Assembly: GCA_964550845.1 (NCBI GenBank)
Contig: CAZKAD010000002.1
Location: forward strand, 11,377 to 75,376
Reading direction: 5' to 3'
Source of the DNA: an uncultured Gammaproteobacteria bacterium
Lineage (GTDB): Bacteria; Patescibacteriota; Patescibacteriia; Magasanikbacterales; UBA922
Length of the DNA: 64,000 nt
The translations under genes and the position numbers were made by a program. Below are positions 4,911 to 51,192 of the stretch, piece by piece. The notes beneath the pieces are model-generated. The model made no database searches. It saw only the letters and a list, made by a program, of their open reading frames with translations, and was not told where the DNA came from. Within the stretch, counting starts at the first letter, position 1. The number at the start of each line of letters is the position of its first letter.

Positions 4911-5022
4911 TGATCGAGATTCAATATTAAAAGTAAATTTAATTACTTTCCTTGAAGATTGAGAAAAAAGATCAATTTTCACATCTCGAAAGATGGGAAA
5001 TGTTTTAACAATGTAACGAGAA

Positions 5023-5625
5023 TCACTCCAACAATGAAAACAATTGTTTTTCAAATTGTTGGAATGACTTGAGTTCATCTTCATAACCATAGCCAGATTG
5101 GTCCCAATCGGCAAAAACTACACCGAAATCCTTCCACTGTCCATTTTGCTTCAAAAATTGCAACAACTTTTCTCCGCTCGAATTTTTCACATCAAATGCA
5201 AGACGATATCGCGAATACATTCCGTGATCCACAAAGTATTTTTGAATCTTCGCAGATGTACAATCGAATTGCTTGAATTCTTCAGACAATTTTTGAGGGA
5301 GGGGAAGATGAGTTACATCTTCATATGTGGTACCAAGAAAAACTTGCCATTCGAACTCTTCCTTCGATACACATGATGGTTCAACATCTTCATCACCAGA
5401 CCAAAGTATTCCTTTTTCCGCTGCAAGACGAAGAACATCAAGAACACGAAGCCAGTCTGCTTTTGGAACTGCATGAGTAAAGGAACAAATCGAATAACCT
5501 TGTTCAATGTTGACATTTTTTTGACCAATTTTTCGAGAAACTTCGTAAGTTCCTCGTGCATCACCTTGACTACTATCAATTTGAAAAAGAGGTCGAACAA
5601 TCAGACAATCTTGAGGATATGACAT
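5023..5625 (-). CDS. Paralog family A protein (unknown function)
   Basis: Start set at MSYPQDCLIV, which aligns with the MNFPRDCLII start of the neighbouring paralog. Shares the LSEEFKQF and FQQFEKQLFSLL motifs with 5713-6279, 27760-28338, 28455-29051 and 29242-29805. AAAATTGA at -57. Confidence 0.6.
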   Translation of the reverse strand: MSYPQDCLIVRPLFQIDSSQGDARGTYEVSRKIGQKNVNIEQGYSICSFTHAVPKADWLRVLDVLRLAAEKGILWSGDEDVEPSCVSKEEFEWQVFLGTTYEDVTHLPLPQKLSEEFKQFDCTSAKIQKYFVDHGMYSRYRLAFDVKNSSGEKLLQFLKQNGQWKDFGVVFADWDQSGYGYEDELKSFQQFEKQLFSLLE

Positions 5626-8285: not shown

Positions 8286-8689
8286 TCAGGATCTTGATCA
8301 TAATCATTTCTTGGATCTTCATCGTCATGACAAAAATCGTCATCTTTGTGTTCAAGCCCATATTGACGAGCTTGATTGAAAGTTTTCTGATCAATCTTCA
8401 ATTCAAGTGAAAAATTAGTCAAAGAAAGTTCCCTGTTGTTCGGTTCGCGAATGAAACATTCAGGACAAAGATCAAAATCGCATTCAACACAGGAAAACAT
8501 TCCGTAAATCTTTTCGGTTCTGTTGATGGAGCGAATTAATAGGTAATCACGTTGACAGCAGTCGCAAATTCGGTACCAAATACTTGACGAATGAGTCGAA
8601 GGGCATTGAATTCGATCAACGTTGAAGAAGAATTTATGTGGATGATTTGGGTAATTGTACAAAGTGGGGGAAATTGTATGAGTTTCCAT
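8174..8689 (-). CDS. Cys-rich (zinc-finger-like) protein with acidic tail
   Basis: CDCC...CVEC...CPEC cluster, acidic C-terminus. ATG fused to the repeat array (GGTTAAATGG). Confidence 0.45.
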   Translation of the reverse strand: METHTISPTLYNYPNHPHKFFFNVDRIQCPSTHSSSIWYRICDCCQRDYLLIRSINRTEKIYGMFSCVECDFDLCPECFIREPNNRELSLTNFSLELKIDQKTFNQARQYGLEHKDDDFCHDDEDPRNDYDQDPDYRDSDSSVEDVTRQNELPEEERDASPEKLLDEERRN

Positions 8690-8870
8690 TTAACCAGTCT
8701 CGAAAAGACGTTTAACCAGTCTCGAAAAGACGTTTAACCAGTCTCGAAAAGACGTTTAACAAGTCTCAAAGAGACGTTTAATTAATTCAAAGAACGTTGT
8801 GGAAATAATATTCTCCGAAAAGAATATCATTTTTAACCAATTCAAAAAGTCTTGAAGAGACGTTAAATTA
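8690..8870 (+). repeat. Tandem array of 22-bp units CCAGTCTCGAAAAGACGTTTAA x4, plus one degenerate distal copy
   Basis: Direct reading. The last unit supplies the ATG context of gene 8174-8689 (GGTTAAATGG on the minus strand). Confidence 0.9.
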
Positions 8871-9700: not shown

Positions 9701-10297
9701 ATGATTTTTTCTCTCTGCGGAGATGAAAAATTCAAAGCTCCCGACATTTTCGTCAAAAAAGATTCATCAATGTTGTTCTATTTGATTGAACGTGGATCTC
9801 GAAAGATGCTCATTTCACTTGAGTCTGCAAATCAGGAACTACTTGATATTTTCCATCTCTTCTTTTCGAATAGCAGAAGAAAAACCCTGATTTCGGAGGC
9901 AAAAGATGTTTCTGGAAAATACTTCCATCTTTATTCTCGTACATTTCTCGAGGATGGACAAAGAACAGATGAATTTCATCTTTTCTTTGATGATGTGAGC
10001 GATCATCCTCAACGACAGTGGGGTAATCAAATTCCAGGATTAAATACCTACCAAAAAACATTTTTCTGGGAACTTTACATCCGAGGACCAATTTCTCAAA
10101 TTGTTAAGTTGTCTCCTCAAGAGATGAACGTGCCTGTTCCATCTCCCTTCTTAACACAGCAATCAAGCTATCGAAAGGAACCTGTGCATTCTTCAACGAA
10201 AAAGCAAGATTATTTGCCTTATGGAGATACTCTTTCGATGCTTACCTTAAGATCTCCAGATCAAAGAAGAGTGGTTCGAATTCGACCAAGAGCATAG
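9701..10297 (+). CDS. Hypothetical protein
   Basis: Start context GTTTAAGTAAAAATGATTTT. Confidence 0.5.
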   Translation: MIFSLCGDEKFKAPDIFVKKDSSMLFYLIERGSRKMLISLESANQELLDIFHLFFSNSRRKTLISEAKDVSGKYFHLYSRTFLEDGQRTDEFHLFFDDVSDHPQRQWGNQIPGLNTYQKTFFWELYIRGPISQIVKLSPQEMNVPVPSPFLTQQSSYRKEPVHSSTKKQDYLPYGDTLSMLTLRSPDQRRVVRIRPRA

Positions 10298-19254: not shown

Positions 19255-19665
19255 ATGGAAGATCAGTTTCTCAAAATTCCACATATCCGAACAGAAAACA
19301 TTGTTCAGGGCAATATTTATTCGTCTTCTAAACAATTACAAGGAAAAGCAATCTTTTTTGCTATCTACTCAGATAGATGTGGTCATTGTGTAAAGATGAA
19401 GCCGGAATATATTAAATTGGCTCAGGAATTGAATCGGAATGATTCAAAAGTTGTGATCGCAGCACTTAACTCGAACGGTTTGCCAAATGAGCCTGAACAA
19501 AAGGCGGCGCTTGATATGATGATTTCGGTTTTGAAGGCAAATGGAATTGAATTCGGAGGATTTCCTACCTTTATCCTCTTCCGTTCTGGTAAATTTCAAG
19601 AATATAACGGTTCTCGTGATGTAAAAGGATTCAAACAATTTCTCAATCAGTCTAGATTGTTGTAA
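19255..19665 (+). CDS. Thioredoxin-fold protein (PDI-like CGHC active site)
   Basis: SDRCGHCVKMKPEY active site. Palindrome TCTC-GGAAA-GAGA abuts the ATG. Confidence 0.7.
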   Translation: MEDQFLKIPHIRTENIVQGNIYSSSKQLQGKAIFFAIYSDRCGHCVKMKPEYIKLAQELNRNDSKVVIAALNSNGLPNEPEQKAALDMMISVLKANGIEFGGFPTFILFRSGKFQEYNGSRDVKGFKQFLNQSRLL

Positions 19666-19707
19666 AAAAATTGAAACTTCTTTGTTTGGATAATTGAAAA
19701 AATATCC

Positions 19708-21066
19708 ATGAAGAGATACCTCACGAATGAGGAAAAAGAAGACTTCATTCAAAGTCTTCCTGTACCATCATTTTTTAAAGCCGAGATTCGTGCTCATCAC
19801 CTAAAAAAAGTTAGAGATATGTTTTTTCCACAACTTGAAAGAAAAGTGTATCCCGAAACTATCCCTAAAATCAAAGAGACGATATGTAAGATTTATTTTC
19901 GTTCTCTGGCTGAACCTGGTAGTCCAGTTGGTCTTTGGGCGAGTCAGACCATGGAAACTTTGACTCAAAACAATTTGAGTTCTTTTCATACATCAGGTTT
20001 AGAAAAAAATATTTCAGCAGGTCTCTCTCGAATTACTGAATTGTATAACGTCAGTCAATCGCCAAAAATTGTCAGCTTTCATTTCGTTCCTCGGCAAAAG
20101 TTTTCTTCTGTTAAAGAGCTTAAAAAGAATATTCGACTTCCATCAGTCTTTTTTCGAGATCTAATTCGAAGACCTGTGATTCAAAAGCAGAAACCGGAAG
20201 CTTGGGAACATCAATTTGCATTTTTGTTTGAACAACCGATTCAAACTGAAGAATGGAGTGCAACCTTTTATCTTGATACCATTTTAATGATCAAAAACGG
20301 ATTGTCTCTGGAATATATTGTAAATAAAATTGCTTCTCAAATTGGATCTCTCCAATTTCGATTTCGCCCTCATGTTAACCCCCCAGTCTTGAAAGTCATT
20401 GTTGATACAAGTAATCTCGAGACAAATGCACAGTTTAGCTTAGGAAAATCGGTTGAAGAAGAATATATTTACAAGATCGTATTAGCAAATTTAGAAAAGA
20501 TTCATATCTCCGGAGTTCCTGGCGTTGAAGCTGCATATTTCAAAGAAACGAATGGTGAATGGTCATATGAAGGTAATGGAGGATCTTTGATTTCACTCTT
20601 ATCACATCAAGATGCAGATCCCTATCAAACGAAAAACGATAATATGTGGGACATTTTCGATTGTCTCGGAGTTGAGGCAACAACACAATTTTTAGTTGAA
20701 GAATTGACACGAGTAATGTGTGAAAACGATTCTTTTATTCACCCTGCACATATTTCATTGATTGCAAGAAATATTACACAAGATGGATATCCAATGGCAA
20801 TTAATCGTCATGGTATGACGCTTGAAAGATATCAACCGTTGTCGAAGATTTCATTTGAGGAATTTATCAAAAACTTGGTACAATCTGTCTATCAATCTGA
20901 AGTTGATCGTACAGCAACGATTGATGCTTGTGTCATGACAGGTAAAATTCCTCCAGTTGGAACAGGTATGTCAAAGATATACGTTGATGTTGGTAAACTT
21001 GAGAAAGAAATTCAAATAAATAAGGTTGTAAGTTCATCCGAGTCTCAACAATTAATGTACTTCTAA
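19708..21066 (+). CDS. RNA polymerase largest subunit, C-terminal half, encoded as a stand-alone gene
   Basis: Trigger-loop-like AEPGSPVGLWASQTMETLTQNNLSSFHTSG, DCLGVEATTQFLVEELTRVM (GIEAAR region), AINRHGMT, and C-terminal GKIPPVGTGMSKIY. AAAATTGA at 19667-19674 (-34). Confidence 0.85.
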   Translation: MKRYLTNEEKEDFIQSLPVPSFFKAEIRAHHLKKVRDMFFPQLERKVYPETIPKIKETICKIYFRSLAEPGSPVGLWASQTMETLTQNNLSSFHTSGLEKNISAGLSRITELYNVSQSPKIVSFHFVPRQKFSSVKELKKNIRLPSVFFRDLIRRPVIQKQKPEAWEHQFAFLFEQPIQTEEWSATFYLDTILMIKNGLSLEYIVNKIASQIGSLQFRFRPHVNPPVLKVIVDTSNLETNAQFSLGKSVEEEYIYKIVLANLEKIHISGVPGVEAAYFKETNGEWSYEGNGGSLISLLSHQDADPYQTKNDNMWDIFDCLGVEATTQFLVEELTRVMCENDSFIHPAHISLIARNITQDGYPMAINRHGMTLERYQPLSKISFEEFIKNLVQSVYQSEVDRTATIDACVMTGKIPPVGTGMSKIYVDVGKLEKEIQINKVVSSSESQQLMYF

Positions 21067-36676: not shown

Positions 36677-37171
36677 ATGGGTTGCATTTCAACGAAATTG
36701 ATTGCTTCACCTCCACCACGAAAAGAAGTGGAACAACCGATTGTTGATGGAAAGCAAAATGAAGGTAAAAATGTTGATCTTGAACAACTCCGCTATGAGA
36801 ATACAACCTCTTTCTTGCCAAGATTTACGTCTGGAAAAATTGTCAAAGTTTATGACGCTGATACATTTTGGATTGCAACTTATTGTAATGGTGTACCAGC
36901 TCGATTTCGTTTGCGGCTTGCAGGAGTTGATACGCCTGAGATTAAATCAAAAGATCCTCAGATTAAGGCTAAAGCCATTTTTGCTCGAGATCAAGTCCGA
37001 GCCCGTATTCTTAATCGAATCGTTCAAGTTGAAATACTTCCCGAGATTGAGAAATTTGGGCGTCTTTTAGCCAGAGTCTCAGATTCGATGGGATCAATTA
37101 ATGACTGGTTGATTTCATCTGGAATGGCCAAACCTTATTTTGGAGGGACCAAAGAGAGTTTTGAAGAATAA
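36677..37171 (+). CDS. Staphylococcal nuclease (SNase/thermonuclease)-like nuclease
   Basis: GKIVKVYDADTFWIA ... RFRLRLAGVDTPE matches the SNase Ca-site/catalytic core. First ATG used (MGCIST); the track start is TTG. Two palindromes abut the ATG. Confidence 0.7.
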   Translation: MGCISTKLIASPPPRKEVEQPIVDGKQNEGKNVDLEQLRYENTTSFLPRFTSGKIVKVYDADTFWIATYCNGVPARFRLRLAGVDTPEIKSKDPQIKAKAIFARDQVRARILNRIVQVEILPEIEKFGRLLARVSDSMGSINDWLISSGMAKPYFGGTKESFEE

Positions 37172-37219
37172 AATGATTTTGATTGTTTAATGATGATCAA
37201 AACAACCATTTCATGAAAA

Positions 37220-38032
37220 ATGGCTAAAGTATTGTATAAATCAAAGAGAATAGAAAAACTCCAAAATTGGCTGGATGAGTTTTGTACTCTTCGAATTGGT
37301 ATTAATATTCGAGTGCGTTATCATGATACAAGGTCCTCCGGAACCGGGTCAAATAAATCCTCATTGTTTGTTTCGTTGATACGATGTTCAGGAAGTAGAG
37401 AAAGTTATTATCTTAAAAAGATTAAAGTAGACTCGTTTGTACGTTGCTTCGAAGTTATCGAAAATTTTTGCCACGAACGTATCTGTGATATTACACTTTA
37501 TCTTATTGATGTTAACATTGAACAACTTTATTCTCTCCGGGTGCGTCGTTTATTTATTTTGGGTAGTCAACCTCTTTCTTCTGAAATTAAATTTCAATCG
37601 AATTCCATTTACATTGATGATTTCTCAAAAAGTTCGGCTTTGATGAAGAATAAAACTTGCAAAAGGTTTTGGTTTCAAGCTTTAATGATTCGTCACGCAA
37701 ATGAAGGATGTCTCCTTTTCTTTGGAAAGTGTTCAAAATGTCAACATAATCAATCCTTTGTTGATCATCAACTTACAAATGCACTGATTGAAGTTCTCCC
37801 TGACATTCCAACTAATATTCTACTTACTCCACTAATGAAGTTTGCAATTTGTATCTTCTTTGGCCTTTCATCCGAAGAAACCATTTTCTCTCACTTCCTC
37901 AAAAGAGATTTATATGATCCAAGACTCTTGATCTTAATTCAAGAGTTTTTTATGATGACAACTCCAATCCTTTCATTTGGAGAATGTGGAAATGAATGTT
38001 CGCGTCATCAAAGGTCGCCGAGAAGAGAATAA
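37220..38032 (+). CDS. Paralog family B protein (C-terminal DLYDPRLLIL motif)
   Basis: Shares the C-terminal FLKRDLYDPRLLILIQ...GECGNEC region with 38064-38906, 49863-50540 and 1538-1858. Confidence 0.55.
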   Translation: MAKVLYKSKRIEKLQNWLDEFCTLRIGINIRVRYHDTRSSGTGSNKSSLFVSLIRCSGSRESYYLKKIKVDSFVRCFEVIENFCHERICDITLYLIDVNIEQLYSLRVRRLFILGSQPLSSEIKFQSNSIYIDDFSKSSALMKNKTCKRFWFQALMIRHANEGCLLFFGKCSKCQHNQSFVDHQLTNALIEVLPDIPTNILLTPLMKFAICIFFGLSSEETIFSHFLKRDLYDPRLLILIQEFFMMTTPILSFGECGNECSRHQRSPRRE

Positions 38033-38063
38033 AATGATTTTTACTTAAGTAAGTAAAAATAAA

Positions 38064-38906
38064 ATGTCCTGGGAATATTCAGATGATGAATCAAGTTATG
38101 GTCGAGATCGATGGAGCTATAGTCGAGATGAATTAAGTTATGATAGTTCCGAAGAACGTTTCCAACAAGCACTTTCAAGTATATTTAATGGAAATGTAGA
38201 TAAACTCTTTCTTTCCTTTACATTTTATGATCTTGACAAAGTAGCTGTAGATTACAAGATGGGAAATGAACGTGGACATTTTTCAATTCTTGAAACATAC
38301 GCAATGAATGCAATTCGTTACGCATCCGATGTGTGTTCTGAATTCTCTGTACAATTGTTTTTCTGCTTGGAAGATTGTGATAACGCCGATTATTTTCCAT
38401 TCAAAGTTGAACAATTGACAATTCAGAGTTATCAAGGTTGGATTCCCCTTGATAACATTCAATTTCAAGCAAACAAAGTTTTAGTCAACGATTCGATTTG
38501 TTATCGGCAATTGCTTAAAAATTCATCTTGTAAAAACGCCGGATTTGTTGCTCGCTCATTTTCATCTGATGGGAGCTTGTTTGCTGAAGTAAAAAATAGT
38601 GGATGTATCAGATGTCTCGCGCTGCGAAAATGTAACGATTATTACAAATGTACTTCGTTATTTAAGATATTACCTTTTCTCCCAGAAAATACCTCATTTT
38701 CTCCAATTGACAAACTTTTGATTCTCGTCTATTTTGGAATCGAGAATCAAGGGATTTGGACCGAATTCTTAACAAAAGAATTGTATGATCCTCGATTACT
38801 CTCCTCGATTTCACAGATGGCTGGAATATTGGTTCAAGAAGATTTACAACAATTGTCACCCAGTGGAGAATGCGAAGAAGGATGCGAAAATATAAGACCA
38901 ACTTAA
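38064..38906 (+). CDS. Paralog family B protein (C-terminal ELYDPRLL motif)
   Basis: Tandem to 37220-38032. Start ATAAAATGTCC. C-terminal GECEEGCEN. Confidence 0.55.
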   Translation: MSWEYSDDESSYGRDRWSYSRDELSYDSSEERFQQALSSIFNGNVDKLFLSFTFYDLDKVAVDYKMGNERGHFSILETYAMNAIRYASDVCSEFSVQLFFCLEDCDNADYFPFKVEQLTIQSYQGWIPLDNIQFQANKVLVNDSICYRQLLKNSSCKNAGFVARSFSSDGSLFAEVKNSGCIRCLALRKCNDYYKCTSLFKILPFLPENTSFSPIDKLLILVYFGIENQGIWTEFLTKELYDPRLLSSISQMAGILVQEDLQQLSPSGECEEGCENIRPT

Positions 38907-38945
38907 TCAAATCATTTCAATATTCTTTTCCTTTTGAGGAAAAGA

Positions 38946-39740
38946 TTAACCATCAATTTCCATTGGTTTCAAGGTCCTTTGGGGCGGGTTCAACTCGGGT
39001 GATGCGGAAGGTGAGGGAAGTCGATAATTTTCATGATAGAATTTAGATACATTTCGATCATTCCAGTTTTCCGGAGCAATGTGATAAGCATTCAAAAGAT
39101 TGGAAATTTCAAAATAGCTAAGAGGTTCTCTTATTCGAAGAACTTTTACATTTTCAAAGAAAAGTTCAATTGGATAATTAAATGCATCAGATGAAAGTCG
39201 AAGCATACTCTTATTCAGTTGTTCTGCTGACGTATCAACTGTCCGACAAAGATGAATGAATTCTGCTATAATTTCAGTCTTCGGATCATTTAATTTCTGC
39301 TCAGTCTTTCGATAATGAAGTGCGTTACCTACACTTCTTGATAAAATTTGAGACATTTGTTCAGCGGCGTACAATTTCATTTTAAATTCTTCAATATCCT
39401 TTTCAAGTGAATTTTTCGAAATCACGAGATTATCTTGAACAAAGATGAATACAACTCCCTGGCTGGCAAGTTGAGATGCAAAATTGTAGCCAAGTTCTCG
39501 ATTACGTGAATATCTATCTACAGAAATACAAACGAATAAACCATGTATAATATTTACTTTACTCAACAACGGTGGAAGTTGTCGGAATGCCGAAGCAGCT
39601 TCGGCGATCACTGAAATCTCCATCTTCAACTCAGGGAAATGACTACAAACCCATTCTCGGCAGATCTTTTCTTGAGCATCTAAACTCTTTCCAAGTAATT
39701 GATTTCTGGTTGAAACACGCGTGTAAATGACACATTGCAT
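38946..39740 (-). CDS. Serine recombinase (resolvase/invertase catalytic domain)
   Basis: N-terminal VIYTRVSTRNQLLGKSLDAQ (catalytic Ser) and downstream VDRYSRN motif. First ATG used (MQCVIY); the track start is TTG. Confidence 0.8.
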   Translation of the reverse strand: MQCVIYTRVSTRNQLLGKSLDAQEKICREWVCSHFPELKMEISVIAEAASAFRQLPPLLSKVNIIHGLFVCISVDRYSRNRELGYNFASQLASQGVVFIFVQDNLVISKNSLEKDIEEFKMKLYAAEQMSQILSRSVGNALHYRKTEQKLNDPKTEIIAEFIHLCRTVDTSAEQLNKSMLRLSSDAFNYPIELFFENVKVLRIREPLSYFEISNLLNAYHIAPENWNDRNVSKFYHENYRLPSPSASPELNPPQRTLKPMEIDG

Positions 39741-39777
39741 GTTCAATCAACGAAGGATGTTCCACCCAACGAAGGAT

Positions 39778-39912
39778 TACCTTTTGTTATGAGAATTTTT
39801 CTGCAAACGTTTTCTTTTAAGCGCGGGATGTCCACGAGATGAAGAAACTACACGTTGATGATTGAGATAAAGTCCGAGAGGTAAAATTCCTCCAAGGAGG
39901 GCAAGTGTAAGA
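39778..39912 (-). CDS. Candidate 45-aa signal-anchor/membrane micro-protein
   Basis: MFLTLALLGGILPLGLYL then a basic tail. The ATG is embedded in the palindrome CATTTCTT-TAATTA-AGAAATG. Below the ORF-track cutoff. Confidence 0.25.
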
Positions 39913-40032
39913 AACATTTCTTTAATTAAGAAATGTTTAAGTCTACTTAACACTGTGAATCTTGATCTTATTGATTAAAATCAGTTTAAACAATTTTGAC
40001 AAGATAGAAAGTCCTAAGAGGCCAGAAAAACA

Positions 40033-40377
40033 ATGTATGATTATCTTGTTGTGTTTACCCTCGGAATTGTAAGTACAATTTATCTTCCCTCTAAGATTGG
40101 AGGAACACTGAAGAAAACTTATTCGGAACTTCGAGAGAAATATCCTCAAGCTTACACAGTAATTTTATGTTGGAGAACATCTGAAATTATGATAGAAAAA
40201 ACAATTCAAGAATTAAAGAAAAGACAGGGTTGTCAACAAATTTCTCTTCTTCCAGGAAAAGAATTTCGATTGTCTGGAATTCGACATGATGGAACAGGAG
40301 AAAATATTCCTTTTGTAAGTGGGATTGTACCACTGAAAGAATATCGATCTCTTCAAATTGAGTTTCTCGAAGATTGA
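40033..40377 (+). CDS. Hypothetical protein
   Basis: ATG start. N-terminal hydrophobic segment. Confidence 0.4.
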   Translation: MYDYLVVFTLGIVSTIYLPSKIGGTLKKTYSELREKYPQAYTVILCWRTSEIMIEKTIQELKKRQGCQQISLLPGKEFRLSGIRHDGTGENIPFVSGIVPLKEYRSLQIEFLED

Positions 40378-40793
40378 GAGTCATTCAAAGCTCTCCATTT
40401 TTTCTCATGAAAAATCCATCGAATTGTTAGAATTAGATAAATGCTTCGAAAAATTGACATCAATGTAAGAATGTAATCTCGTGTAAATTCTCCGGTAAAC
40501 ATCCAAAGATCTACATAAAAAGCTATCTCAACTATACCCGCGATAATTAATGGAGTTGCTGCCCATTTCGGATATCTTTTTAACAAAACTAAATGAATTA
40601 TAAACACAAATATCAGAATGAATGCCCAGACGTAGTGAAGAACAATCAAGATGGATGAAATGTTTGTATAAGCAAGTAATTGCGCCAATGTAAAATGAAA
40701 TAGTGCATTGACTAAAACAAATGAGACCCAGAGGCCGAAATAATAAAATACAAAAAGATACAATTGAATATCTTCGAATTGAACCGTAAGCAT
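40353..40793 (-). CDS. Multi-pass membrane protein
   Basis: Four hydrophobic helices. Convergent 25-nt overlap with 40033-40377. Confidence 0.45.
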   Translation of the reverse strand: MLTVQFEDIQLYLFVFYYFGLWVSFVLVNALFHFTLAQLLAYTNISSILIVLHYVWAFILIFVFIIHLVLLKRYPKWAATPLIIAGIVEIAFYVDLWMFTGEFTRDYILTLMSIFRSIYLILTIRWIFHEKKWRALNDSQSSRNSI

Positions 40794-40835
40794 TTTGAAA
40801 ATAAAAGTAACTTTAAAAAGTCACTTTTATTAGAA

Positions 40836-41948
40836 ATGGCGTTGGCTGGAAATTATGCGCGAGCAATTTTGATTGACAGTGGATTCCGCAATCGAGAAAA
40901 ATATCCGCTCCAAGGCGATTTTGTTTTGATTCCAGAAGAAGGTAAAGGAAATAATGGAATTACCGAGCCTGTAGGATTGGGATATCCATTGCAAACAGGA
41001 CTCGTCAATACATACACCGCCGGTCCACCTTCTTATATTGAACTCCAAAGTGCAATTGTAGCTTCTTTTCCCGAAAATGTTTTGCTCAATTGTCAAATTG
41101 AAATTCTAGTCGGAACAACGGCTGTGTCGAGAGGATCGGCAAAAGTTATCGCATTTGGGACTGTCTCTCCGATCGTACGCATCTACTTTGATGATCCGAT
41201 TCCAGGAGCAGTTAACGGAGATACGGTAATTATCCGACAATTGGCAACATCGAAACCTCCTCATCGTCATGTCTTGACTGCTGGATCAAGCGTTGGAGAT
41301 ACAACTTTGACTTTGATTGGAGGATCATCCAAAACCAATTATTATGTCGGAATGTACTTTGGAGTCTTGGGTGCAACCCAAAAATACAAAATTAGCGCAT
41401 ATAATGCAACGACACAAGTGATTACATTTGCTCCTCCTTTATCTGCAATCTTATCAATTGGAAATATTCTTGAGATTTATCAAATTGAAGATAATAATTC
41501 TGGATTGTCAAAATCTGGTCATGTGATTGGAGGAATGTTTAATTATGAAATTCGTCTCGATTGGATTAATATTCCAACAGTTTCTTTGTTTAAAGCCGAA
41601 TCTTCATCTCTCGCGAAAAAGATTACCGAATTCCCTTACATTTTAGTTGAGTTTCGTAATGATCATGGATCGACCGATGCCGTTCAAACGAATAATAGGA
41701 ACGCAAAAGGATCAACATTTGTAATTCCGGTCGATGATCGCTCGACTGGATCGGGAAATTTTATTACACTTCGAGGATCAAATTCAGTTGTGCATATGCT
41801 TGATTTGAACGGAAAGATTCGATTTACTATTCGTGTTCCTTCGGGAGACATTGTTTATTTCGATGAGACATATGAACTCTCTTCTCTTCAAGTTTCAAAT
41901 CCCGATCTTCAAATTTCGGCTCATTTCACGGTGAGAAGAATTCATTAA
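40836..41948 (+). CDS. Hypothetical beta-rich protein (possible structural)
   Basis: First ATG (MALAGNYARA); the track start is TTG. The TAA stop lies inside the repeat core CATTAAATG. Confidence 0.5.
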   Translation: MALAGNYARAILIDSGFRNREKYPLQGDFVLIPEEGKGNNGITEPVGLGYPLQTGLVNTYTAGPPSYIELQSAIVASFPENVLLNCQIEILVGTTAVSRGSAKVIAFGTVSPIVRIYFDDPIPGAVNGDTVIIRQLATSKPPHRHVLTAGSSVGDTTLTLIGGSSKTNYYVGMYFGVLGATQKYKISAYNATTQVITFAPPLSAILSIGNILEIYQIEDNNSGLSKSGHVIGGMFNYEIRLDWINIPTVSLFKAESSSLAKKITEFPYILVEFRNDHGSTDAVQTNNRNAKGSTFVIPVDDRSTGSGNFITLRGSNSVVHMLDLNGKIRFTIRVPSGDIVYFDETYELSSLQVSNPDLQISAHFTVRRIH

Positions 41949-41987
41949 ATGTCCGAAAGGATTAAATGTCCTTCTGGGATTAAAACT
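41943..41987 (+). repeat. Three ATTAAAT-hairpin units between convergent genes; both stop codons lie inside units
   Basis: CATTAAATGTCCGAAAGGATTAAATGTCCTTCTGGGATTAAAAC. Confidence 0.6.
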
Positions 41988-43374
41988 CTTTCATTGATAC
42001 AAATAAATGATCAAGAATTTTGTTTGCAACTCGATATCCCGAACGTAAAGCGCCTTCCATGTATCCATAAAAGACTGGATCAGTGTGTTCGCCTGCAATG
42101 TAAGGAGATGTACTCTTTTGATAATATTCAACAAATTTCATCTGCCCAGGAGGAATATAAGAATATCCTCCTTCAATCAAGGGATTTTGATTCCAATTTT
42201 CAGTATAAGAATACTTTGTCCAATAGGGACAAAGTCTTTGAATATCTTGTGATTCTTTGAGGTCGGAATAAAAGTTGACTAACACTCGGTCATTTTTATT
42301 CATTTCACTGAAAGGAAAATAATCACCTCGATTCTCGGTCGCTTCCCAAATTTCTCCTTGAGGAAGTGCTAAAACGTTTGGCGATCGAGAAAATCGAATC
42401 CAGTCTCGGTGACCATAGATATATAATGTTTTAATAACTGGACCAATTGGCAACGCCGGTATAGATAATCCAGAAATTTTATGATATTGAGTCGGTGGAA
42501 TGGCAAGAATGAGGTAATCATAACTAACTACAATCTCTTTTCCTTCAAAGTCAAAAGTACATTTCTTTTCATGTTCATTGACGGCTTTGAGTTTGTGGAG
42601 AAGACGGACAAAGCTACGTTGTAATAGTTTTTCGACCATAAATAAATTACCTTCAGCACAACGATAAACTTGTTCAGTGTTCCAGAAACTTTTTCCATCT
42701 AAGTTAGGAGAACCACCTTTAACCTGTGTTAAAATAGAGAGATAACTTTGTTGACTTGGATCTGCAAGATTATCACATTGAAATTGTTTCTTAATGTATT
42801 CTTTTCCAAGATTCGACAATTCACATCGTTCAAGTTTATCTCCGAGGGATAAAGTATCTGGCATGTTCCACGGCTCGAATGGATTTGAAAGTTCTTTGCT
42901 ATCTTCAGCAAGCATATCTCGAAACTTTTTAATATCTTGTTCAATTTGCTTTTCTTCTTCCTTTGATAAAGCTTTGTCATTCAAATAAAGATTGTTTTTG
43001 CATCCTTGGGCAGCATAATAGGTTTCAGGTGTAACTAGAGTGAAAGAAAGTTTCAATCGATGAGCAAGAGTCAACCACATGGCATGATTTGATCCGATTA
43101 ATTCAGCTCCAAGTTCAACTTGAGGAACATCATAAATCGAAGCTGTCTTAACTCTTCCACCAACTCTTTCGGCAGCTTCATAAACGTGAACATTTGGAAG
43201 AGCAGACAAAAAGTAGGCAGCAGCTGCTCCAGCTAGACCGGCTCCGACAATGACAATCTTTGGTATAGTTCCGAGACGATTTGCTTTCTCTTGAACGTGA
43301 TCGAGATAACTGAGGTCAATTTTAGCCATCGGGGATATTTTCCCTGGCTCTCGAAGTGAATACCATTTATTCAT
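41980..43374 (-). CDS. Flavin-containing amine oxidase (MAO/PAO/LAAO family)
   Basis: Dinucleotide-binding IVIVGAGLAGAAAAYFL, YEAAERVGGRVKT, and C-terminal YIAGEHTD...GYMEGALRSGYRVANKIL. An 8-bp-stem palindrome abuts the ATG. Confidence 0.8.
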   Translation of the reverse strand: MNKWYSLREPGKISPMAKIDLSYLDHVQEKANRLGTIPKIVIVGAGLAGAAAAYFLSALPNVHVYEAAERVGGRVKTASIYDVPQVELGAELIGSNHAMWLTLAHRLKLSFTLVTPETYYAAQGCKNNLYLNDKALSKEEEKQIEQDIKKFRDMLAEDSKELSNPFEPWNMPDTLSLGDKLERCELSNLGKEYIKKQFQCDNLADPSQQSYLSILTQVKGGSPNLDGKSFWNTEQVYRCAEGNLFMVEKLLQRSFVRLLHKLKAVNEHEKKCTFDFEGKEIVVSYDYLILAIPPTQYHKISGLSIPALPIGPVIKTLYIYGHRDWIRFSRSPNVLALPQGEIWEATENRGDYFPFSEMNKNDRVLVNFYSDLKESQDIQRLCPYWTKYSYTENWNQNPLIEGGYSYIPPGQMKFVEYYQKSTSPYIAGEHTDPVFYGYMEGALRSGYRVANKILDHLFVSMKEF

Positions 43375-43378
43375 TCCT

Positions 43379-43400
43379 TTTCTTTATAGAAAAGGAAAAT
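43379..43400 (-). promoter_or_regulatory. Palindrome CCTTTTCT-ATAA-AGAAAAGG abutting the ATG of the amine oxidase gene
   Basis: Direct reading. Confidence 0.5.
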
Positions 43401-43442
43401 CTTTTATTCTTCTTTTTACGAGTTGTTTGAATAGTAAATAAG

Positions 43443-43799
43443 TTACCATCGTTCAACGATGATAATTAAACTTTCTTCTTTTTTGTCGAGATTTCCTCGA
43501 GCCGATCCAATTTCCATTGCTGTTACAATGGTTTCAAACGTTTTTCTCAACATCTCTTTTGCCTGATTTTTGGTTGTTCGGTCAAAGAATGAAGAGTGAA
43601 GAATGTTATGAAATAAAGGAAATACAGTTTGCAATTGGCATTGCAATGAAGATTTCTTTTCAATTAACAGAGCTCGAAGAGCAAGGAAAAGTTTTTCTTG
43701 TAATTCAAGATCGAGACATTCGAGAGCTCGTGAACATTCATGTGAGAGCATTTTCCTTTGTTCTCGACATCGAGTAATTTCATTCGAAACCGAAAGCAT
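43443..43799 (-). CDS. Hypothetical protein
   Basis: ATG preceded by three GTTTAACC units. Confidence 0.4.
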   Translation of the reverse strand: MLSVSNEITRCREQRKMLSHECSRALECLDLELQEKLFLALRALLIEKKSSLQCQLQTVFPLFHNILHSSFFDRTTKNQAKEMLRKTFETIVTAMEIGSARGNLDKKEESLIIIVERW

Positions 43800-43821
43800 T
43801 TCTTTTTAAAGGGAAGAAAGA

Positions 43822-43876
43822 AGTTTAACCAATCCTCTGGACGTTTAACCAGTCTTGGGGATGTTTAACCACTTTA
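43822..43876 (+). repeat. Three tandem GTTTAACC units (20-bp period) upstream of gene 43443-43799
   Basis: GTTTAACCAATCCTCTGGACGTTTAACCAGTCTTGGGGATGTTTAACC. Confidence 0.7.
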
Positions 43877-44203
43877 CATCGAAGATAATGTTATCATCAA
43901 TTGAATTGTTACGAGTTTCGCAACAATTCGAATCATCAACCAAGTTCCGACTTGTCGATCATCCTTATGTAGATTAGTAATCAGATTAGTTAATGCAAGC
44001 AGATTTAATTTATTTATGAATGCCTCATCAAAAACAAAGAGTGCTTTTTCTTCCAATGAAGGTGGCACATTTTCATTCCACCAACAGTGGATGACTTAAT
44101 TCTCAAGTTTGAGACGAAAATTTTTCATCTCGTTACGTTCAAATTTTTCAATCAATGCTTGAAATGCTTGAAATGCTTGAGAATCCATTTTGATATATCA
44201 AGG

Positions 44204-44262
44204 GAGGTTTAACTAGTCCTAAAAGGACGTTTAACCTCCACTCGAAACGTCTTAATCCTCTC
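44204..44262 (+). repeat. GTTTAAC-AGTCCT-AAA-AGGAC-GTTTAAC hairpin unit at the 3' end of gene 44252-45733
   Basis: Direct reading. Preceded by gcttgaaat x3 at 44158-44186. Confidence 0.6.
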
Positions 44263-45733
44263 CGTCTTCCTCATCATCTTCCCGAATGATTTCGTCATTT
44301 GGAATTTCCATGTCAGATCGTGTGCCAGTTCGAAGACGCAATTCTCCATTTTTCAGCTCCCAGACTTCATTGACTCGAGTGATATCTCCCATTACATCAA
44401 GTAAATTCTTGCTGACATCACTCTCGCCATATTCTCGGTTCCATTCGCATATATTCGCGTTGACCAGGTTACACAAAAACGAGAAGTAATATCTCTGATA
44501 TTTCATTTGATATGTACCTAGAATTTGTTTTTCATTCAGTACTGCCTGAGACATCTTATGAGTAATGATAGCTTTGAGTTGTTGACGGAAAGTTAACAAA
44601 TTGACAGACAAATCATCTTCATATCCATTAAATACATTAAGGAAGTTTTCGGTATGACCAGATGAGCACATTCCATCGATATCGAGTATTTCCTGATGGA
44701 GACGTCGAAGAAGTTCTTCTTTAAATTTCGAACTGTGTATCTTCATCAAAATGTACACCAAGCTGTCCAGGACAGTCATTCCATACACTGTTGTCGGATC
44801 AATTTGAACACGTTCGAGAAGTACATCATAAACTGCCTTATGTTCGGCAGGAATGGGAAGATGTTCTTTTAGATAACTCACTTTTTCAGGAATCGTGGAT
44901 GGACATTCTTTTTGCTCGAGTGCCCAGGTTTGAATCTTTCGTAGCACAGTTTCAAGAGCGCGAGCAATTTCTTCATCATGAGCGTTCTGTTGATCTTGAT
45001 AAACATTTTGTTCGTGATCTTTGAGTTCGCCAAAAGACATTTCTTCTTTGAATTTCAACACATCTGGATTGCGGCCAAATTTTCTTAACATTACATCAAG
45101 CAAATTTGACCTCTCTTTAAAATCTCTTGTCCGTCGAGACCAATCAAGAAAATGTTGAGTAATTTCTTTCTCAGGAAGATCTCCAATCAGTTGTTCATCG
45201 TTAAACATCTGGAGAAGGAAGTGCTTTTTGGCAGGCGAAAAACGATGAGTAAAGAAATGCTTCGCAATTGCTCGAATCGCATAAATATCGGCATAATGAA
45301 GATACATACTTTTTGGAATTGGATCTTCGGTTTCACTAATATGGGGGATCAATTTCTTTCCATACGAAGCGGCATCACTCTTTGAATGTTTGTAAAAGAC
45401 GTAAAGTTGCCGAAATAACCAATATCCAAGACCAAGAGCGATATAATGAGGACATTTATCATCCTCGATTGCAGCATGTACGTCTTTGAGCAGTTTTCCA
45501 AATGACTGTTGACGAATTTCTTTCATTTGTTCAAACATCATTGCATAAGGACTGTCTTTTTCTTCAGCAATTCTTTTCGCCTCATTGAAGATACGAAAAT
45601 GAGAAGGATCGGCAGAAATTTCAGTTTCGACTGCAGTATTGGCGATTTTACCGACACTTGGTTCAAGAGTGTTGAAAGCTTCTTCAATGAGAGCTTTCTT
45701 TTCTTCTTCGGTTAGATCTGCAAGCTTGGGCAT
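44252..45733 (-). CDS. Hypothetical protein (493 aa)
   Basis: Clean ATG. The stop is followed by a GTTTAAC-flanked hairpin. Confidence 0.55.
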   Translation of the reverse strand: MPKLADLTEEEKKALIEEAFNTLEPSVGKIANTAVETEISADPSHFRIFNEAKRIAEEKDSPYAMMFEQMKEIRQQSFGKLLKDVHAAIEDDKCPHYIALGLGYWLFRQLYVFYKHSKSDAASYGKKLIPHISETEDPIPKSMYLHYADIYAIRAIAKHFFTHRFSPAKKHFLLQMFNDEQLIGDLPEKEITQHFLDWSRRTRDFKERSNLLDVMLRKFGRNPDVLKFKEEMSFGELKDHEQNVYQDQQNAHDEEIARALETVLRKIQTWALEQKECPSTIPEKVSYLKEHLPIPAEHKAVYDVLLERVQIDPTTVYGMTVLDSLVYILMKIHSSKFKEELLRRLHQEILDIDGMCSSGHTENFLNVFNGYEDDLSVNLLTFRQQLKAIITHKMSQAVLNEKQILGTYQMKYQRYYFSFLCNLVNANICEWNREYGESDVSKNLLDVMGDITRVNEVWELKNGELRLRTGTRSDMEIPNDEIIREDDEEDGED

Positions 45734-45792
45734 GGGAAAAACTGATTTTGATTCTTTTTTGAAGGAAATAAGTTCTTTAGTCTTCCTTCAAA

Positions 45793-46644
45793 ATGAATAA
45801 TTCCTGGATCTTTCGCACATTGAGATTTGGATTCGAGTCGATAGTCGAGTCGAAAGATAATGAATGGAAAGAATTTTTTACATCTCAACTTGCAATCTTA
45901 AATCAAATTAACACGATTTTACTCTCATATTCTCTATCAAAGATTATGGTTTCAAATCAAGAGCAGTCTCAACGCCCATCGGGGCAAACTCAAGTCCCAG
46001 TTGAATTTTGGACTCACCTTTCAGATGAAGAGAAAAAGTTTGTCCTCACCCAAAAGCAACTTGCACAATATCCAGAAATTTGGCCCCTTCCTCTCGATGT
46101 GTTTAAAGCTTTTGAATTAGCTCCTCTTCAAAAAGTTAAGGTGGTGATCATTGGACAAGACCCTTATCATACTCCACATGTTGCGAATGGACTTGCATTC
46201 TCAGCTCAACGTGGAGCAAGTATGCCTCCATCATTGAGAAACATTTTTCTTAAACTGAAGCAAGAAGGATTCAAAGCTGACAATCCTTGTCTCGAATCTT
46301 GGGCAACCCAAGGTGTACTTTTACTCAATACTGCACTCACTGTTTTTTCTGGACAAGCCGAATCTCATCTCGGATTATGGAAAACTTTTATTACAGAATT
46401 AATCAAATACCTTGGTAAACGAGATGGACTTGTTTGGATTCTCTGGGGCAAGAAAGCTGAAGCTTTTCTACCCCATATTTCTCAACAGAAAAGTTATGTA
46501 CTGATTGGAGGTCATCCTTCTCCAATCAATACCAAGGGTACTTTCATGAGTGGAAACTATTTTCAACTGGCAAATCAATGTCTTCAAAAGATGGGTAAAA
46601 CTCCAATTGATTGGAATTTGGAAGCTAGTGTATTTCAAAAATAA
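45793..46644 (+). CDS. ung: Uracil-DNA glycosylase (family 1 UNG)
   Basis: Motif A VVIIGQDPYH and HPSP motif IGGHPSPIN. The N-terminal ~50 aa are non-conserved, so the true start may be an internal ATG. Confidence 0.85.
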   Translation: MNNSWIFRTLRFGFESIVESKDNEWKEFFTSQLAILNQINTILLSYSLSKIMVSNQEQSQRPSGQTQVPVEFWTHLSDEEKKFVLTQKQLAQYPEIWPLPLDVFKAFELAPLQKVKVVIIGQDPYHTPHVANGLAFSAQRGASMPPSLRNIFLKLKQEGFKADNPCLESWATQGVLLLNTALTVFSGQAESHLGLWKTFITELIKYLGKRDGLVWILWGKKAEAFLPHISQQKSYVLIGGHPSPINTKGTFMSGNYFQLANQCLQKMGKTPIDWNLEASVFQK

Positions 46645-46701
46645 AAAGAAATAAAATTGAATTCTTTTTCCCCATTTAAGAAGTAAGATTGAACATCAAC
46701 C

Positions 46702-47520
46702 ATGGAGGTTACCAATGAAAAATTACATGGCGATTGTTGTTCAAGATTGTCGAGATTTTTATTTGGAAATTTATATGTCTTCTATTCGTACAGAAAAAAA
46801 GGAGATTTTTACAGAGTTTTAGCTCATCACGATTCATTTTGCTCTTGTCAAAGGTTCTTCAATCAAAGCTATCAAAAATTTTGTCTTAATTTATCTCCTG
46901 TAGAAAAAGGAGGCGATGATCTATTTAAATTTAGCCTACTTTGTTGCTATTCAGATAATAAGAAACAAAGGGAAATATCAATCGAAAGTCTTTATTTAAG
47001 TAATGTTCGCGTGCTTGATTGGTTTCTCCAGGAATGCAAAGAAATTTCAGATCGACGTGGTGCGGAGATTGAGATTAATGTTAACTGCGAATCTACTTTC
47101 GATTTAACTGGAATTAATGCTGTGTTTAATCGAGTAATTGTTAGATCGGAAAATCGAATGGATTATTTTCGCCTACCAATTCGATGGATTATCATTTCAG
47201 TTAAAGGCGATTTCAAGCACCTTGAACAAATGTTATCACAGCCTGCGCACAATATAATCGAAGAAATTGCAATTAGCCATCTTTATCCATATAAAAATCC
47301 AATAGATTCTTTTTGTCGTTGGTTATATTATATAATAATTCAAAATCATCCGATTCAATTCGAATATTACACTGCAGAAATGTTTATGCAAGAAATTAAA
47401 TTAATATTGGATTTGACCAATTTAATTACTGAATGTTTACATCAACAAAATCAAGGCAACTTTTCATTCATTCCATCGGAGTTGCTCAATTTGAGCATCC
47501 AATTCGCTGGAAAAAATTGA
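46702..47520 (+). CDS. Hypothetical protein
   Basis: AAAATTGA at 46653-46660 (-42). Confidence 0.5.
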   Translation: MEVTNEKLHGDCCSRLSRFLFGNLYVFYSYRKKGDFYRVLAHHDSFCSCQRFFNQSYQKFCLNLSPVEKGGDDLFKFSLLCCYSDNKKQREISIESLYLSNVRVLDWFLQECKEISDRRGAEIEINVNCESTFDLTGINAVFNRVIVRSENRMDYFRLPIRWIIISVKGDFKHLEQMLSQPAHNIIEEIAISHLYPYKNPIDSFCRWLYYIIIQNHPIQFEYYTAEMFMQEIKLILDLTNLITECLHQQNQGNFSFIPSELLNLSIQFAGKN

Positions 47521-47572
47521 TCATCTCAAGAGATGATCAAATAAAAAAACTCATCTTTCCTTTAGGAAATAA
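47513..47572 (+). promoter_or_regulatory. Composite upstream module of kinase 47573: AAAATTGA (47513-47520), 10-bp-stem inverted repeat TGATCATCTC-AA-GAGATGATCA, palindrome TTTCC-TTTA-GGAAA, TAAATG
   Basis: Direct reading. Confidence 0.55.
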
Positions 47573-48961
47573 ATGAGTGAGATATATTTGGATACAACAA
47601 TTGAAAGAACATTTACCGTCAATGGAGAAGGCTTCAATCAAAAGTATAGAATCAATGAGTTTAAAAATCCTCATCCGGCTGTTTATTTTCTTGTATTTTA
47701 CTGTAATCTAACTAAATTTGAAGCAGTAAAATTTGATAAATGGGATTGTATGCCAGTAAATATGAAATGCATCTTAACTGGATCAAAAACCAAAATTTAT
47801 CATTTCTCGATTGTCGAAAATCTTCAAGTTCAATCTTATATTATCAAGTATTTTAACGATGAATGCACGCTTCATTTTATGCAAGAATTTTCTGTGTTGT
47901 ATCAAATCTCTCTATTATGTGAAGATCCAGAAGCATATGGATTGCCTCAATTATTGTCTGTGTATAAGAATTGTCTTCTTTTTCCATGTTATCGGAAATT
48001 TCAAAGTTTGAGTGTTTGCGCACTTAAAAATAAATTGCTCTCTGCAGTCAATATCCTTCATTCATTGCATGTTGTTCATTTGGATATCAAACCGGATAAC
48101 ATTTTATTTTCTGACAAAGGTCCTATCTTAAATGATTTTGATTGTTCGACTGTTTTAATCGATGGCCATCAGGCTGAAATTTCATCTTTTTGTGGTACGT
48201 TGGGATATATGCCTTACTGGTTTAATTATAATCAAAAAGTATATTCTTACACATATCAAAACGATCTCTGGGGACTCGGCTTGACAATCTCTTCTTTTCG
48301 GAGTGGAAGAAGAGAACTGATCAAATATCAAAACGAAAAAAGTTATTTCGATCAAGCGAAGAAATTTTTTGCCCAACTTTCACATTCAGATCCAGAGTTT
48401 GATTTATTTACTGGAACTTATACATTTGATCAAGTACTTCCATTTACAATTAAACCTTCATACTACCGCTTAGACTTATCGAGAACACAATTTCTCAGGT
48501 TTTTCAGACAACATGAACTTTGTATTCTTGCACTTGGCTTTCTTTTCTATAGCCAAGTCCAGGAAGATGAAGTGTTCGACCTTGCAAATGCAATTTTTTA
48601 CAATCAGAAACCATCTTTTGAACAAGGTTATCTTTTGTCGAGAATCAAATACATTATTTTCACAGCTCCGCAAATTCCCTTCTTTATTCTGCTCAAGAAA
48701 TATCGCAAAAATCCAACATTTTTTCTTCCTCTCATTATTTTGGGTGCCAAAGGATTTCATTCTGCTAAAGAAATTGACTGGTTTGAAAATCGATTTATCC
48801 ATTCAAAATATCTCGACGAAGATGAAGAAACCGAAAGGCGATATCACCAAATTCTCGAAGAATACAATTTATATGCCTCGTCAACAGTTGAAGACATTAA
48901 AAATGATTCTTCTTTACTTCGAAAAAGAAAGAAACCAGTTGAAGATGATCATTCCGGTTAG
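47573..48961 (+). CDS. Serine/threonine protein kinase-like protein
   Basis: Catalytic loop [17 protein letters not shown] (DFG-like) NDFDCS. AAAATTGA at -53, 10-bp-stem hairpin, TTTCC-TTTA-GGAAA palindrome, TAAATG start. Confidence 0.7.
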
Positions 48962-49732: not shown

Positions 49733-49868
49733 GTTTAAACGTCTCTTCGAGACTGGTTAAACGTCTCTTCGAGACTGGTTAAACGTCTCTTCGAGACTGG
49801 TTAAACGTCCTTATAGGACTCTTTGAAATGATTAAACGTCCTTATAGGACTCTTTGAAATGATTAAAT
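49733..49868 (+). repeat. Array of GTTTAAACGTCTCTTCGAGACTG x3 plus GTTAAACGTCCTTATAGGACTCTTTGAAATGAT x2; the TAA stop of gene 49863-50540 lies inside the last unit
   Basis: Direct reading. Hairpins GTCTC-TTC-GAGAC and GTCCT-TAT-AGGAC. Confidence 0.9.
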
Positions 49869-51113: not shown

Positions 51114-51192
51114 AAATGTTTATCCAGTTCCGCAGAACGTTTATCCAGTTCCGCAGAACGTTTAATCAGTTCCGCAGAACGTTTAATTACCA
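51114..51192 (+). repeat. Tandem 21-bp units CAGTTCCGCAGAACGTTTAWC x3
   Basis: Direct reading; between the stop of 51187-51579 and the start of 50582-51067. Confidence 0.85.

Follow-up and report, generated by a model that had tools for sequence, protein, structure and literature searches.

A predicted, catalytically intact serine recombinase at a fixed position in a mimivirus-like giant virus genome

The gene considered here encodes a serine recombinase and lies in a 64,000-nucleotide stretch of contig CAZKAD010000002.1, which was analysed as a whole and is called the window below. Judged from its sequence and predicted fold, the open reading frame (ORF; coordinates of this and other features in Table 1) is a true, intact serine recombinase gene. 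The window itself is, by its gene content and predicted regulatory signals, part of the genome of an uncultivated mimivirus-like (Imitervirales-type) giant virus. The explanation that we regard as probable overall is a functional, stand-alone, single-copy giant-virus recombinase, vertically inherited and acting on viral DNA. The gene was compared with its counterparts at related loci, chiefly those of a strain with 95.6% identical DNA and a 98% identical recombinase protein (L007), of a relative with a 54% identical recombinase (L001), and of two relatives at about 28% (L010 and L011). The locus search was run with a 10-sequence subset of the protein family, the full 66-sequence alignment being too diverse for that purpose.

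The ORF is read on the minus strand from an ATG at 39740 to a stop codon at 38946-38948; its homologues begin at the same Met, so that a TTG at 39746 is not needed as a start. An earlier note, made from the DNA letters without database searches, had called the gene a serine recombinase from its catalytic motifs, and the call is borne out. The motifs YTRVSTRNQ (residues 6-14), SLDAQ (residues 19-23) and VDRYSRN (residues 74-80) are present. The profile search that the note had proposed gives a Pfam Resolvase (PF00239) match over residues 6-146 of 38.2 bits (E=1.9e-9), above the gathering cut-off of 23.3 bits. The protein consists of a catalytic domain (approximately residues 1-112), helix E (residues 113-150), a C-terminal domain (residues 153-238) and a disordered tail (residues 240-264) that ends in KPMEIDG. 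Its AlphaFold2 model, built with the 66-member family alignment, has a mean predicted local distance difference test score (pLDDT) of 91, and in it an alpha/beta catalytic domain is followed by helix E, 38 residues long, and by a C-terminal domain of compact shape. Foldseek matches the model, with a probability of 1.00, to the catalytic domain of TP901-1 integrase, the gamma-delta and Tn3 resolvases, Sin and Gin; it also matches 6dgc, which has the catalytic fold of IS607-family TnpA.

The key residues are all in place, namely the nucleophile Ser10 together with Y6, R8, Q14, Q23, E47, D75, R76 and R79. In Tn3 resolvase, mutation of Y6, R8, S10, D36, R68 or R71 abolishes activity (PMC2794168). 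The equivalents of Tn3 Q14, Q19 and D67 are retained in the window protein, and the position of Tn3 D36 is occupied by Glu (E47), a conservative replacement found likewise throughout the family. Among the 66 family members R8 is conserved in 65, S10 in 64, R76 in 65 and R79 in all. Between the window and L007 the gene differs by 14 synonymous and 6 non-synonymous changes; the ratio of non-synonymous to synonymous substitution rates (dN/dS) is 0.11, within the range of the neighbouring genes. By this measure the recombinase gene is under purifying selection.

The viral origin of the window follows from three kinds of evidence. The window encodes Rpb2, a D5-type primase-helicase, an A32 packaging ATPase, and Pif1 and SNF2 helicases. 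Of the 38 occurrences of the octamer AAAATTGA, 18 lie in the sense orientation no more than 120 nt (36-112 nt) upstream of gene starts; with 6.5% of strand positions qualifying, the expected number is about 2.5. The window also has 27 perfect hairpins whose stems measure 10 bp or more, compared to 1.8 expected from Markov resamples; 22 of the 27 fall outside ORFs of at least 100 aa, and most of these 22 are found at gene 3' ends. An early-promoter element and a hairpin polyadenylation rule are known from the Mimiviridae (PMC4402537). The hallmark genes, the octamer promoters and the 3'-end hairpins thus point to a mimivirus-like giant virus. The homologues of the window D5 protein are metagenomic sequences only (99%, 75%, then 53% identity or less), and the window Rpb2 is nearest to eukaryotic Pol II rather than to the poxvirus or asfarvirus enzymes.

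The recombinase belongs to a sizeable family in such viruses. An exhaustive HMMER search returned 178 cluster representatives at E<1e-3, 39 of them below 1e-10, with 25-38% identity and many of them aligned across both domains (residues 1-240); of the 66 relatives, 65 match PF00239. The best matches among the predicted viral structures of BFVD (E 8e-11 to 2.6e-8, approximately 250-300 aligned columns) bear the annotation "serine recombinase", "resolvase" or "recombinase family protein". They derive from Bodo saltans virus (A0A2H4UUQ0), Gaeavirus, Edafosvirus, Dasosvirus, ChoanoV1, Yasminevirus, Pithovirus LCPAC and Clandestinovirus. The top matches are Mimiviridae entries, the serine recombinase annotation extends to klosneuviruses, and relatives are found on contigs of giant virus metagenome-assembled genomes (GVMAGs). 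Public databases thus already contain annotated members of the family; in the literature we found no published function or characterisation of it. As a single query, the recombinase gave spurious tektin matches only among PDB sequences and no match in an IMG/VR scan. The stand-alone serine recombinases of the Mimiviridae type have the same architecture as the window protein (a catalytic domain at the N-terminus, then helix E, then about 90 aa of C-terminal domain) and occur in genomes with AAAATTGA promoters, as does the window protein. Their identity to it is confined to the range given above, and their tails are long and charged, unlike the short tail ending in KPMEID.

These disordered tails carry some recurring motifs: ELFxxFxxFxxxxK in one subgroup of relatives, KRK-rich ends resembling nuclear localisation signals in many, and M[EK][IV]D in the window clade (KPMEIDG) and a few other family members. 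They may represent interaction or localisation signals, and are worth noting because vaccinia F16, considered below, goes to nucleoli.

By profile, the family is closest to the large serine recombinases (TP901-1, 4e-16; phiC31, 3.5e-14). An hhalign comparison of the family with 16 bacterial large serine recombinases gave 99.9% (E=1.4e-34), in an alignment that runs from the catalytic domain through helix E into the recombinase domain, of which it takes in the GG-PYGY start; the C-terminal domain alone gave 96.6% (E=5e-10), the alignment containing an inserted stretch of about 36 aa. Like TP901-1, phiC31, Bxb1 and LI, to which it shows clear homology in the catalytic domain and helix E, the viral family keeps the GG-PYGY start and the "…IA..LN..g…W…V" helix region. 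Unlike them, the window protein is about half their size and has no zinc ribbon or coiled coil, and its recombinase domain, with the insertion, is unrecognisable to Foldseek and to Pfam. The second profile suggested in the earlier note, the recombinase domain PF07508, has a divided outcome: it is not matched directly by the window protein in Pfam (8 of the 66 relatives match it weakly), and the domain is recovered by the profile-profile comparison only. The zinc ribbon and coiled coil (PF13408) has no match in the protein, which at 264 aa falls short of the size criterion of more than about 400 aa; no viral family member shows the zinc ribbon, whereas bacterial large serine recombinases from the same search do. 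The C-terminal domain is, from these profile comparisons, a diverged, partial homologue or remnant of the large-serine-recombinase "recombinase domain", and the family appears best described as a truncated, diverged derivative of that type rather than as a member of the class. The small resolvases and invertases (Tn3, gamma-delta, Sin, Hin, Gin) resemble the window protein in catalytic fold, residues and overall size, but they possess a C-terminal domain of the HTH_7 (helix-turn-helix) type, which Pfam does not find in it. Neither an adjoining res- or hix-like site nor their usual transposon or plasmid setting was found here.

By analogy, we infer a mechanism of the kind used by other serine recombinases. 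A dimer would use its C-terminal domain and helix E to bind a dyad-symmetric site, and two such dimers would synapse into a tetramer. Ser10 would then make double-strand breaks with 2-nt overhangs, and the subunits would rotate by 180 degrees before the DNA is religated. As to timing, the canonical octamer AAAATTGA is found 39-87 nt upstream of the recombinase start in 9 related loci, and from this position in the relatives early expression of the enzyme is most likely. In the window, the variant AAAATTGT is a candidate promoter for the recombinase and the small gene directly upstream of it; in the window, L007 and L001 alike it precedes the start of the small gene by 64-80 nt. At the other end, the hairpin that abuts the recombinase stop codon is likely to be a 3'-end/polyadenylation hairpin shared by the convergent genes, and an analogous strong hairpin follows the recombinase in L011. 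A single transcript of the small gene and the recombinase may extend from the AAAATTGT region to this hairpin. The enzyme probably acts on viral DNA in replication or genome processing, e.g., by resolving multimeric replication products or setting genome isomers; because its recombination site was not found, this biological role is the weakest step of the explanation. The concatemer-resolution or inversion system that the note had put forward as one option is conceivable.

Several observations weigh against a functional recombinase of this kind. A search for repeats in the flanks and a comparison of the window with L001 found no conserved dyad-symmetric site next to the gene, and no inversion or other rearrangement distinguishes the window from L007 over the 15.4 kb compared. 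The model of the C-terminal domain is confident (pLDDT 93) and has no Foldseek match in the PDB, nor is there a sequence-profile match there, so that DNA binding by this domain is assumed. The window recombinase gene itself lacks the canonical AAAATTGA, and AAAATTGT is in no other case promoter-associated in the window (0 of 18 occurrences). Furthermore, the window protein and its 54% relative are without about 20 residues of the family, i.e., the GGxxPYGY hairpin joining helix E to the C-terminal domain. They also have Met129 and Ser136 where 63 of the 66 members have Glu and 62 have Arg, respectively. The two positions correspond to Tn3 E118, at the dimer interface, and R125, a helix E residue involved in DNA binding and synapsis; in Tn3 resolvase these residues are non-essential for chemistry and affect synapsis and in vivo resolution (PMC2794168). 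Finally, the recombinase evolves faster than D5 (54% versus 75% identity to the same relative). The peculiarities of the window clade suggest altered regulation or DNA engagement. With a derived, faster-evolving clade and no site found, there is room for a changed or non-catalytic role, as in F16.

The alternative that takes up these points is exaptation: the recombinase scaffold would have been recruited, like vaccinia F16 (OPG061), for DNA or chromatin binding, nuclear targeting or regulation, its catalytic residues no longer being used for strand exchange. F16 has been reported as an inactivated recombinase that localises to nucleoli (PMC4304020). Like the window protein it is viral, stand-alone (about 230 aa) and derived from a serine recombinase, and it has weak sequence and fold links to the giant-virus family. 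Pox_F16 (PF04708) is matched by 5 of the 66 relatives (best 9.9e-6), with no match for the window recombinase at E<0.1, and in BFVD the recombinase model weakly matches OPG061 of four poxviruses (E 0.011-0.026). We treat this tie as a distant link and a lead. The loss of the GGxxPYGY segment and of two family-conserved helix E residues, the faster evolution, the missing site and the basic KRK-rich tails of many relatives would all fit exaptation. However, most chordopoxvirus F16 proteins are without the DRLxR motif, crocodilepox F16 being reported to have retained its active site (bioRxiv 10.1101/2022.11.22.517515), and F16 is catalytically dead in the other chordopoxviruses, whereas the window protein retains every key residue. 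S10, R8, Y6, D75, R76 and R79 are kept across the family and in both diverged clades, under purifying selection, and the two altered helix E positions are those that Tn3 resolvase does not need for chemistry. Exaptation therefore seems unlikely to us.

An integrase that inserts viral DNA into the host genome or excises it, in the manner of phage large serine integrases, and so contributes to giant-virus endogenisation, has a smaller chance still. Large serine integrases are the closest cellular and phage relatives by profile, and recombinases have been reported in endogenous giant-virus elements (PMC12455990). The protein nevertheless ends at 264 aa, without the zinc-ribbon/coiled-coil domain that serves att-site recognition and directionality. 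No attP-like or other att-type site adjoins the gene and no integration context surrounds it; all contigs examined consist of viral sequence throughout, without a host junction.

The surroundings of the gene speak to its inheritance. The window and L007 are collinear over the compared 15.4 kb. In the 54% relative, the gene order is kept through a 374-aa gene, a 143-aa membrane protein, a 114/127-aa gene, the micro-ORF, the recombinase, family B and a staphylococcal-nuclease-like (SNase) gene, the sole difference being that the family-B gene is duplicated in the window. The earlier note had described a tandem pair here, and the two ORFs (37220-38032 and 38064-38906) are indeed paralogues (29% identity, E=2e-19); L001 has one copy (E=3e-24), and none lies between the recombinase and the SNase gene in L010 and L011. 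In the relatives at about 28% the recombinase is still convergent with the SNase gene. This adjacency is present in the window, L007, L001/L023, L010, L011, L017, L018 and L019 and absent in more distant family members; a functional module of the two genes was rejected, the adjacency being confined to one lineage. One copy of the recombinase gene is present in the window, as at each related locus, and the gene is, from this comparison, vertically inherited and not part of a transposon.

The same evidence bears on the proposal of the earlier note that the gene is a mobile-element remnant, or on its being an active element, IS607-like or of another serine-transposase kind, that landed between the family-B and 114-aa genes. 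Giant viruses do carry IS607-type elements (PMC6188088), which, like the window gene, have no terminal inverted repeats and whose TnpA shares the catalytic fold (6dgc), and a lineage-specific tandem duplication flanks the recombinase gene. IS607 TnpA, however, has an N-terminal MerR-like DNA-binding domain, whereas the window protein begins with the catalytic domain, its serine at residue 10, and IS607 elements have an adjoining tnpB. As the note had observed, no TnpB/OrfB adjoins the gene: Pfam found neither this nor any other transposase domain in the ORFs from 36623 to 43374. Its remark that inverted repeats are not obvious also holds, since a search of the flanks for the ends of an element or for paired sites turned up no inverted or direct repeat longer than about 25 nt at 70-80% identity, a chance level. 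The gene is single copy, its dN/dS is low, and its position is fixed from L007 to the relatives at about 28%. The note had named a conserved, syntenic orthologous locus as what would tell against mobility, and by that standard the deep conservation of synteny refutes a mobile remnant; we consider a mobile element of any kind very improbable.

Upstream of the recombinase lies an interval (39741-40032) that the note had described as an unusually long, 290-bp non-coding gap. It measures 292 bp and contains the hydrophobic micro-ORF that the note had already seen and put at 45 aa; the ORF has 46 aa and is conserved in relatives. Counterparts occupy the same position in L007 (46 aa), L001 (39 aa, MIISLLLLGGILPL…LRKRLRRKKR; 4922-5041) and L011 (58 aa, …RLRKRLRKNKQ; 9772-9948), and share the basic-tail motif [LF][KR]KRL[QR][KR] across a length range of 39-58 aa; the micro-gene is absent at the L010 and L017-L019 loci. 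We regard the ORF as a real gene for a predicted small membrane protein. Because it is conserved in position, strand and sequence features, the interval is not non-coding, and what remains beside it, a 36-bp spacer and a 115-bp divergent promoter region, is ordinary for this genome.

The note had also suggested a recombination site in this interval or in scattered GTTTAAC units. The two direct repeat copies (CAACGAAGGAT, 39747-39757 and 39766-39776) that it had seen are real and form part of a 19-bp duplication, whose second copy has already diverged in L007 and which is absent in L001. The palindrome is likewise real, and longer than had been claimed; it is identical in L007, absent in L001, and one of the 27 hairpins of the window, belonging to a genome-wide class of intergenic hairpins. 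A site in the interval thus finds no support. GTTTAAC is 5-fold over-represented in the window (38 occurrences versus 7.9 expected), with no unit in the interval, where a single GTTTAAAC is found at 39984. The units make up intergenic tandem arrays at 8689-8781, 29150-29242, 34343-34452, 43823-43871, 44207-44235, 49735-49867 and 51118-51185. Each array unit combines a constant TGGTTAAAC with a short hairpin, at a period of 20-22 and also 29/31, and the stem differs between arrays in a covariation-like manner. All arrays that were checked are located 5' of the start of a gene, on whose sense strand they read GTTAAAC; by their fixed orientation, 5' placement and variable stems, the arrays resemble a promoter-associated element, serving some of the genes, rather than a recombination-related one. 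An invertase or switch acting on the nearby palindrome, the direct repeat or the GTTTAAC arrays is thus barely credible, for all that the first two lie just upstream of the gene and the third is over-represented, given that palindrome and repeat are not kept in the 54% relative, that the palindrome is of a type common in this genome, that the arrays are built and placed as described, and that 15.4 kb are collinear between strains with no inversion.

Table 1. Position and nature of the recombinase gene and of features in its vicinity (window coordinates)
Feature	Position	Strand	Basis or description
Serine recombinase gene	38946..39740	-	ORF, 264 aa; PF00239; AlphaFold2 model; Foldseek; dN/dS
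Part coding for the C-terminal domain (residues 153-238)	39027..39284	-	Family alignment; hhalign versus bacterial large serine recombinases
Conserved micro-gene directly upstream of the recombinase	39777..39917	-	46 aa; N-terminal transmembrane helix, basic tail …KRKRLQK…
Tandem duplication of about 19 bp (CAACGAAGGAT x2)	39739..39777	.	Tandem Repeats Finder, period 19, 2.1 copies; fills the 36-bp spacer from the micro-ORF stop to the recombinase ATG
Perfect palindrome AAACATTTCTT-TAATT-AAGAAATGTTT	39912..39938	.	Sequence; 11-bp arms, 5-nt centre; overlaps the micro-ORF start codon
AAAATTGT, candidate promoter	39990..39997	-	Sequence; differs at one base from the early-promoter octamer of mimivirus; lies 80 nt before the micro-ORF ATG
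Hairpin TCTTTTCC-TTTTGA-GGAAAAGA	38924..38945	.	Sequence; immediately next to the recombinase stop codon, in the space separating the recombinase gene from the convergent family-B genes
Staphylococcal-nuclease-like (SNase) gene	36677..37171	+	Pfam SNase, 32.6 bits; convergent neighbour of the recombinase
Tandem family-B pair	37220..38906	+	Paralogy; 270 and 280 aa, between the recombinase and the SNase gene

Some further features of the window and its relatives were recorded. A flavin amine oxidase gene (41980-43374, minus strand; Pfam Amino_oxidase, 100 bits) marks the edge of the conserved block in both the window and L007, and in L001 its position is taken by an unrelated 877-aa gene (221-2854). 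Across 34465-48961 the synonymous substitution rate (dS) relative to L007 varies about 18-fold between neighbouring genes (0.019 for a 166-aa ORF, 0.33 for the amine oxidase and 0.35 for a kinase), which suggests that homologous recombination between strains has left a mosaic. In the RNA polymerase, the largest subunit appears to be split or interrupted, as a 452-aa ORF at 19255-21066 (plus strand) holds Rpb1 domain 5 only and is preceded by a 136-aa ORF. Inteins (PF14890 / Hom_end_hint) occur in the D5 protein of the relatives P0202, P0206, P0214, P0215 and P0220, the window D5 being without one, and an intein also interrupts a metallophosphatase in L011 (12907-14364).

Taken alone, the finding of the recombinase carries little weight; it corrects the ideas of a transposon relic, of a non-coding interval and of a special palindrome. 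As a compact protein of about 260 aa with a novel predicted DNA-binding domain, the enzyme could interest genome engineers only if its site were found. Of somewhat wider, if modest, value is the sizeable family of serine recombinases, catalytically intact as far as their sequences tell, in mimivirus-like viruses, with a fixed position in this lineage and early-promoter motifs in relatives. Its weak link to F16 suggests that the poxvirus protein may have arisen from the giant-virus family, and not straight from a phage gene. A bolder proposal, which is possible but doubtful, is that giant viruses at large express early a zinc-ribbon-less derivative of the large serine recombinases, the active counterpart of F16, which would perform a site-specific step such as multimer resolution or isomerisation; in the window clade this enzyme would have been remodelled, with the hairpin lost and the helix E interface changed, and may work with the 46-aa membrane protein.

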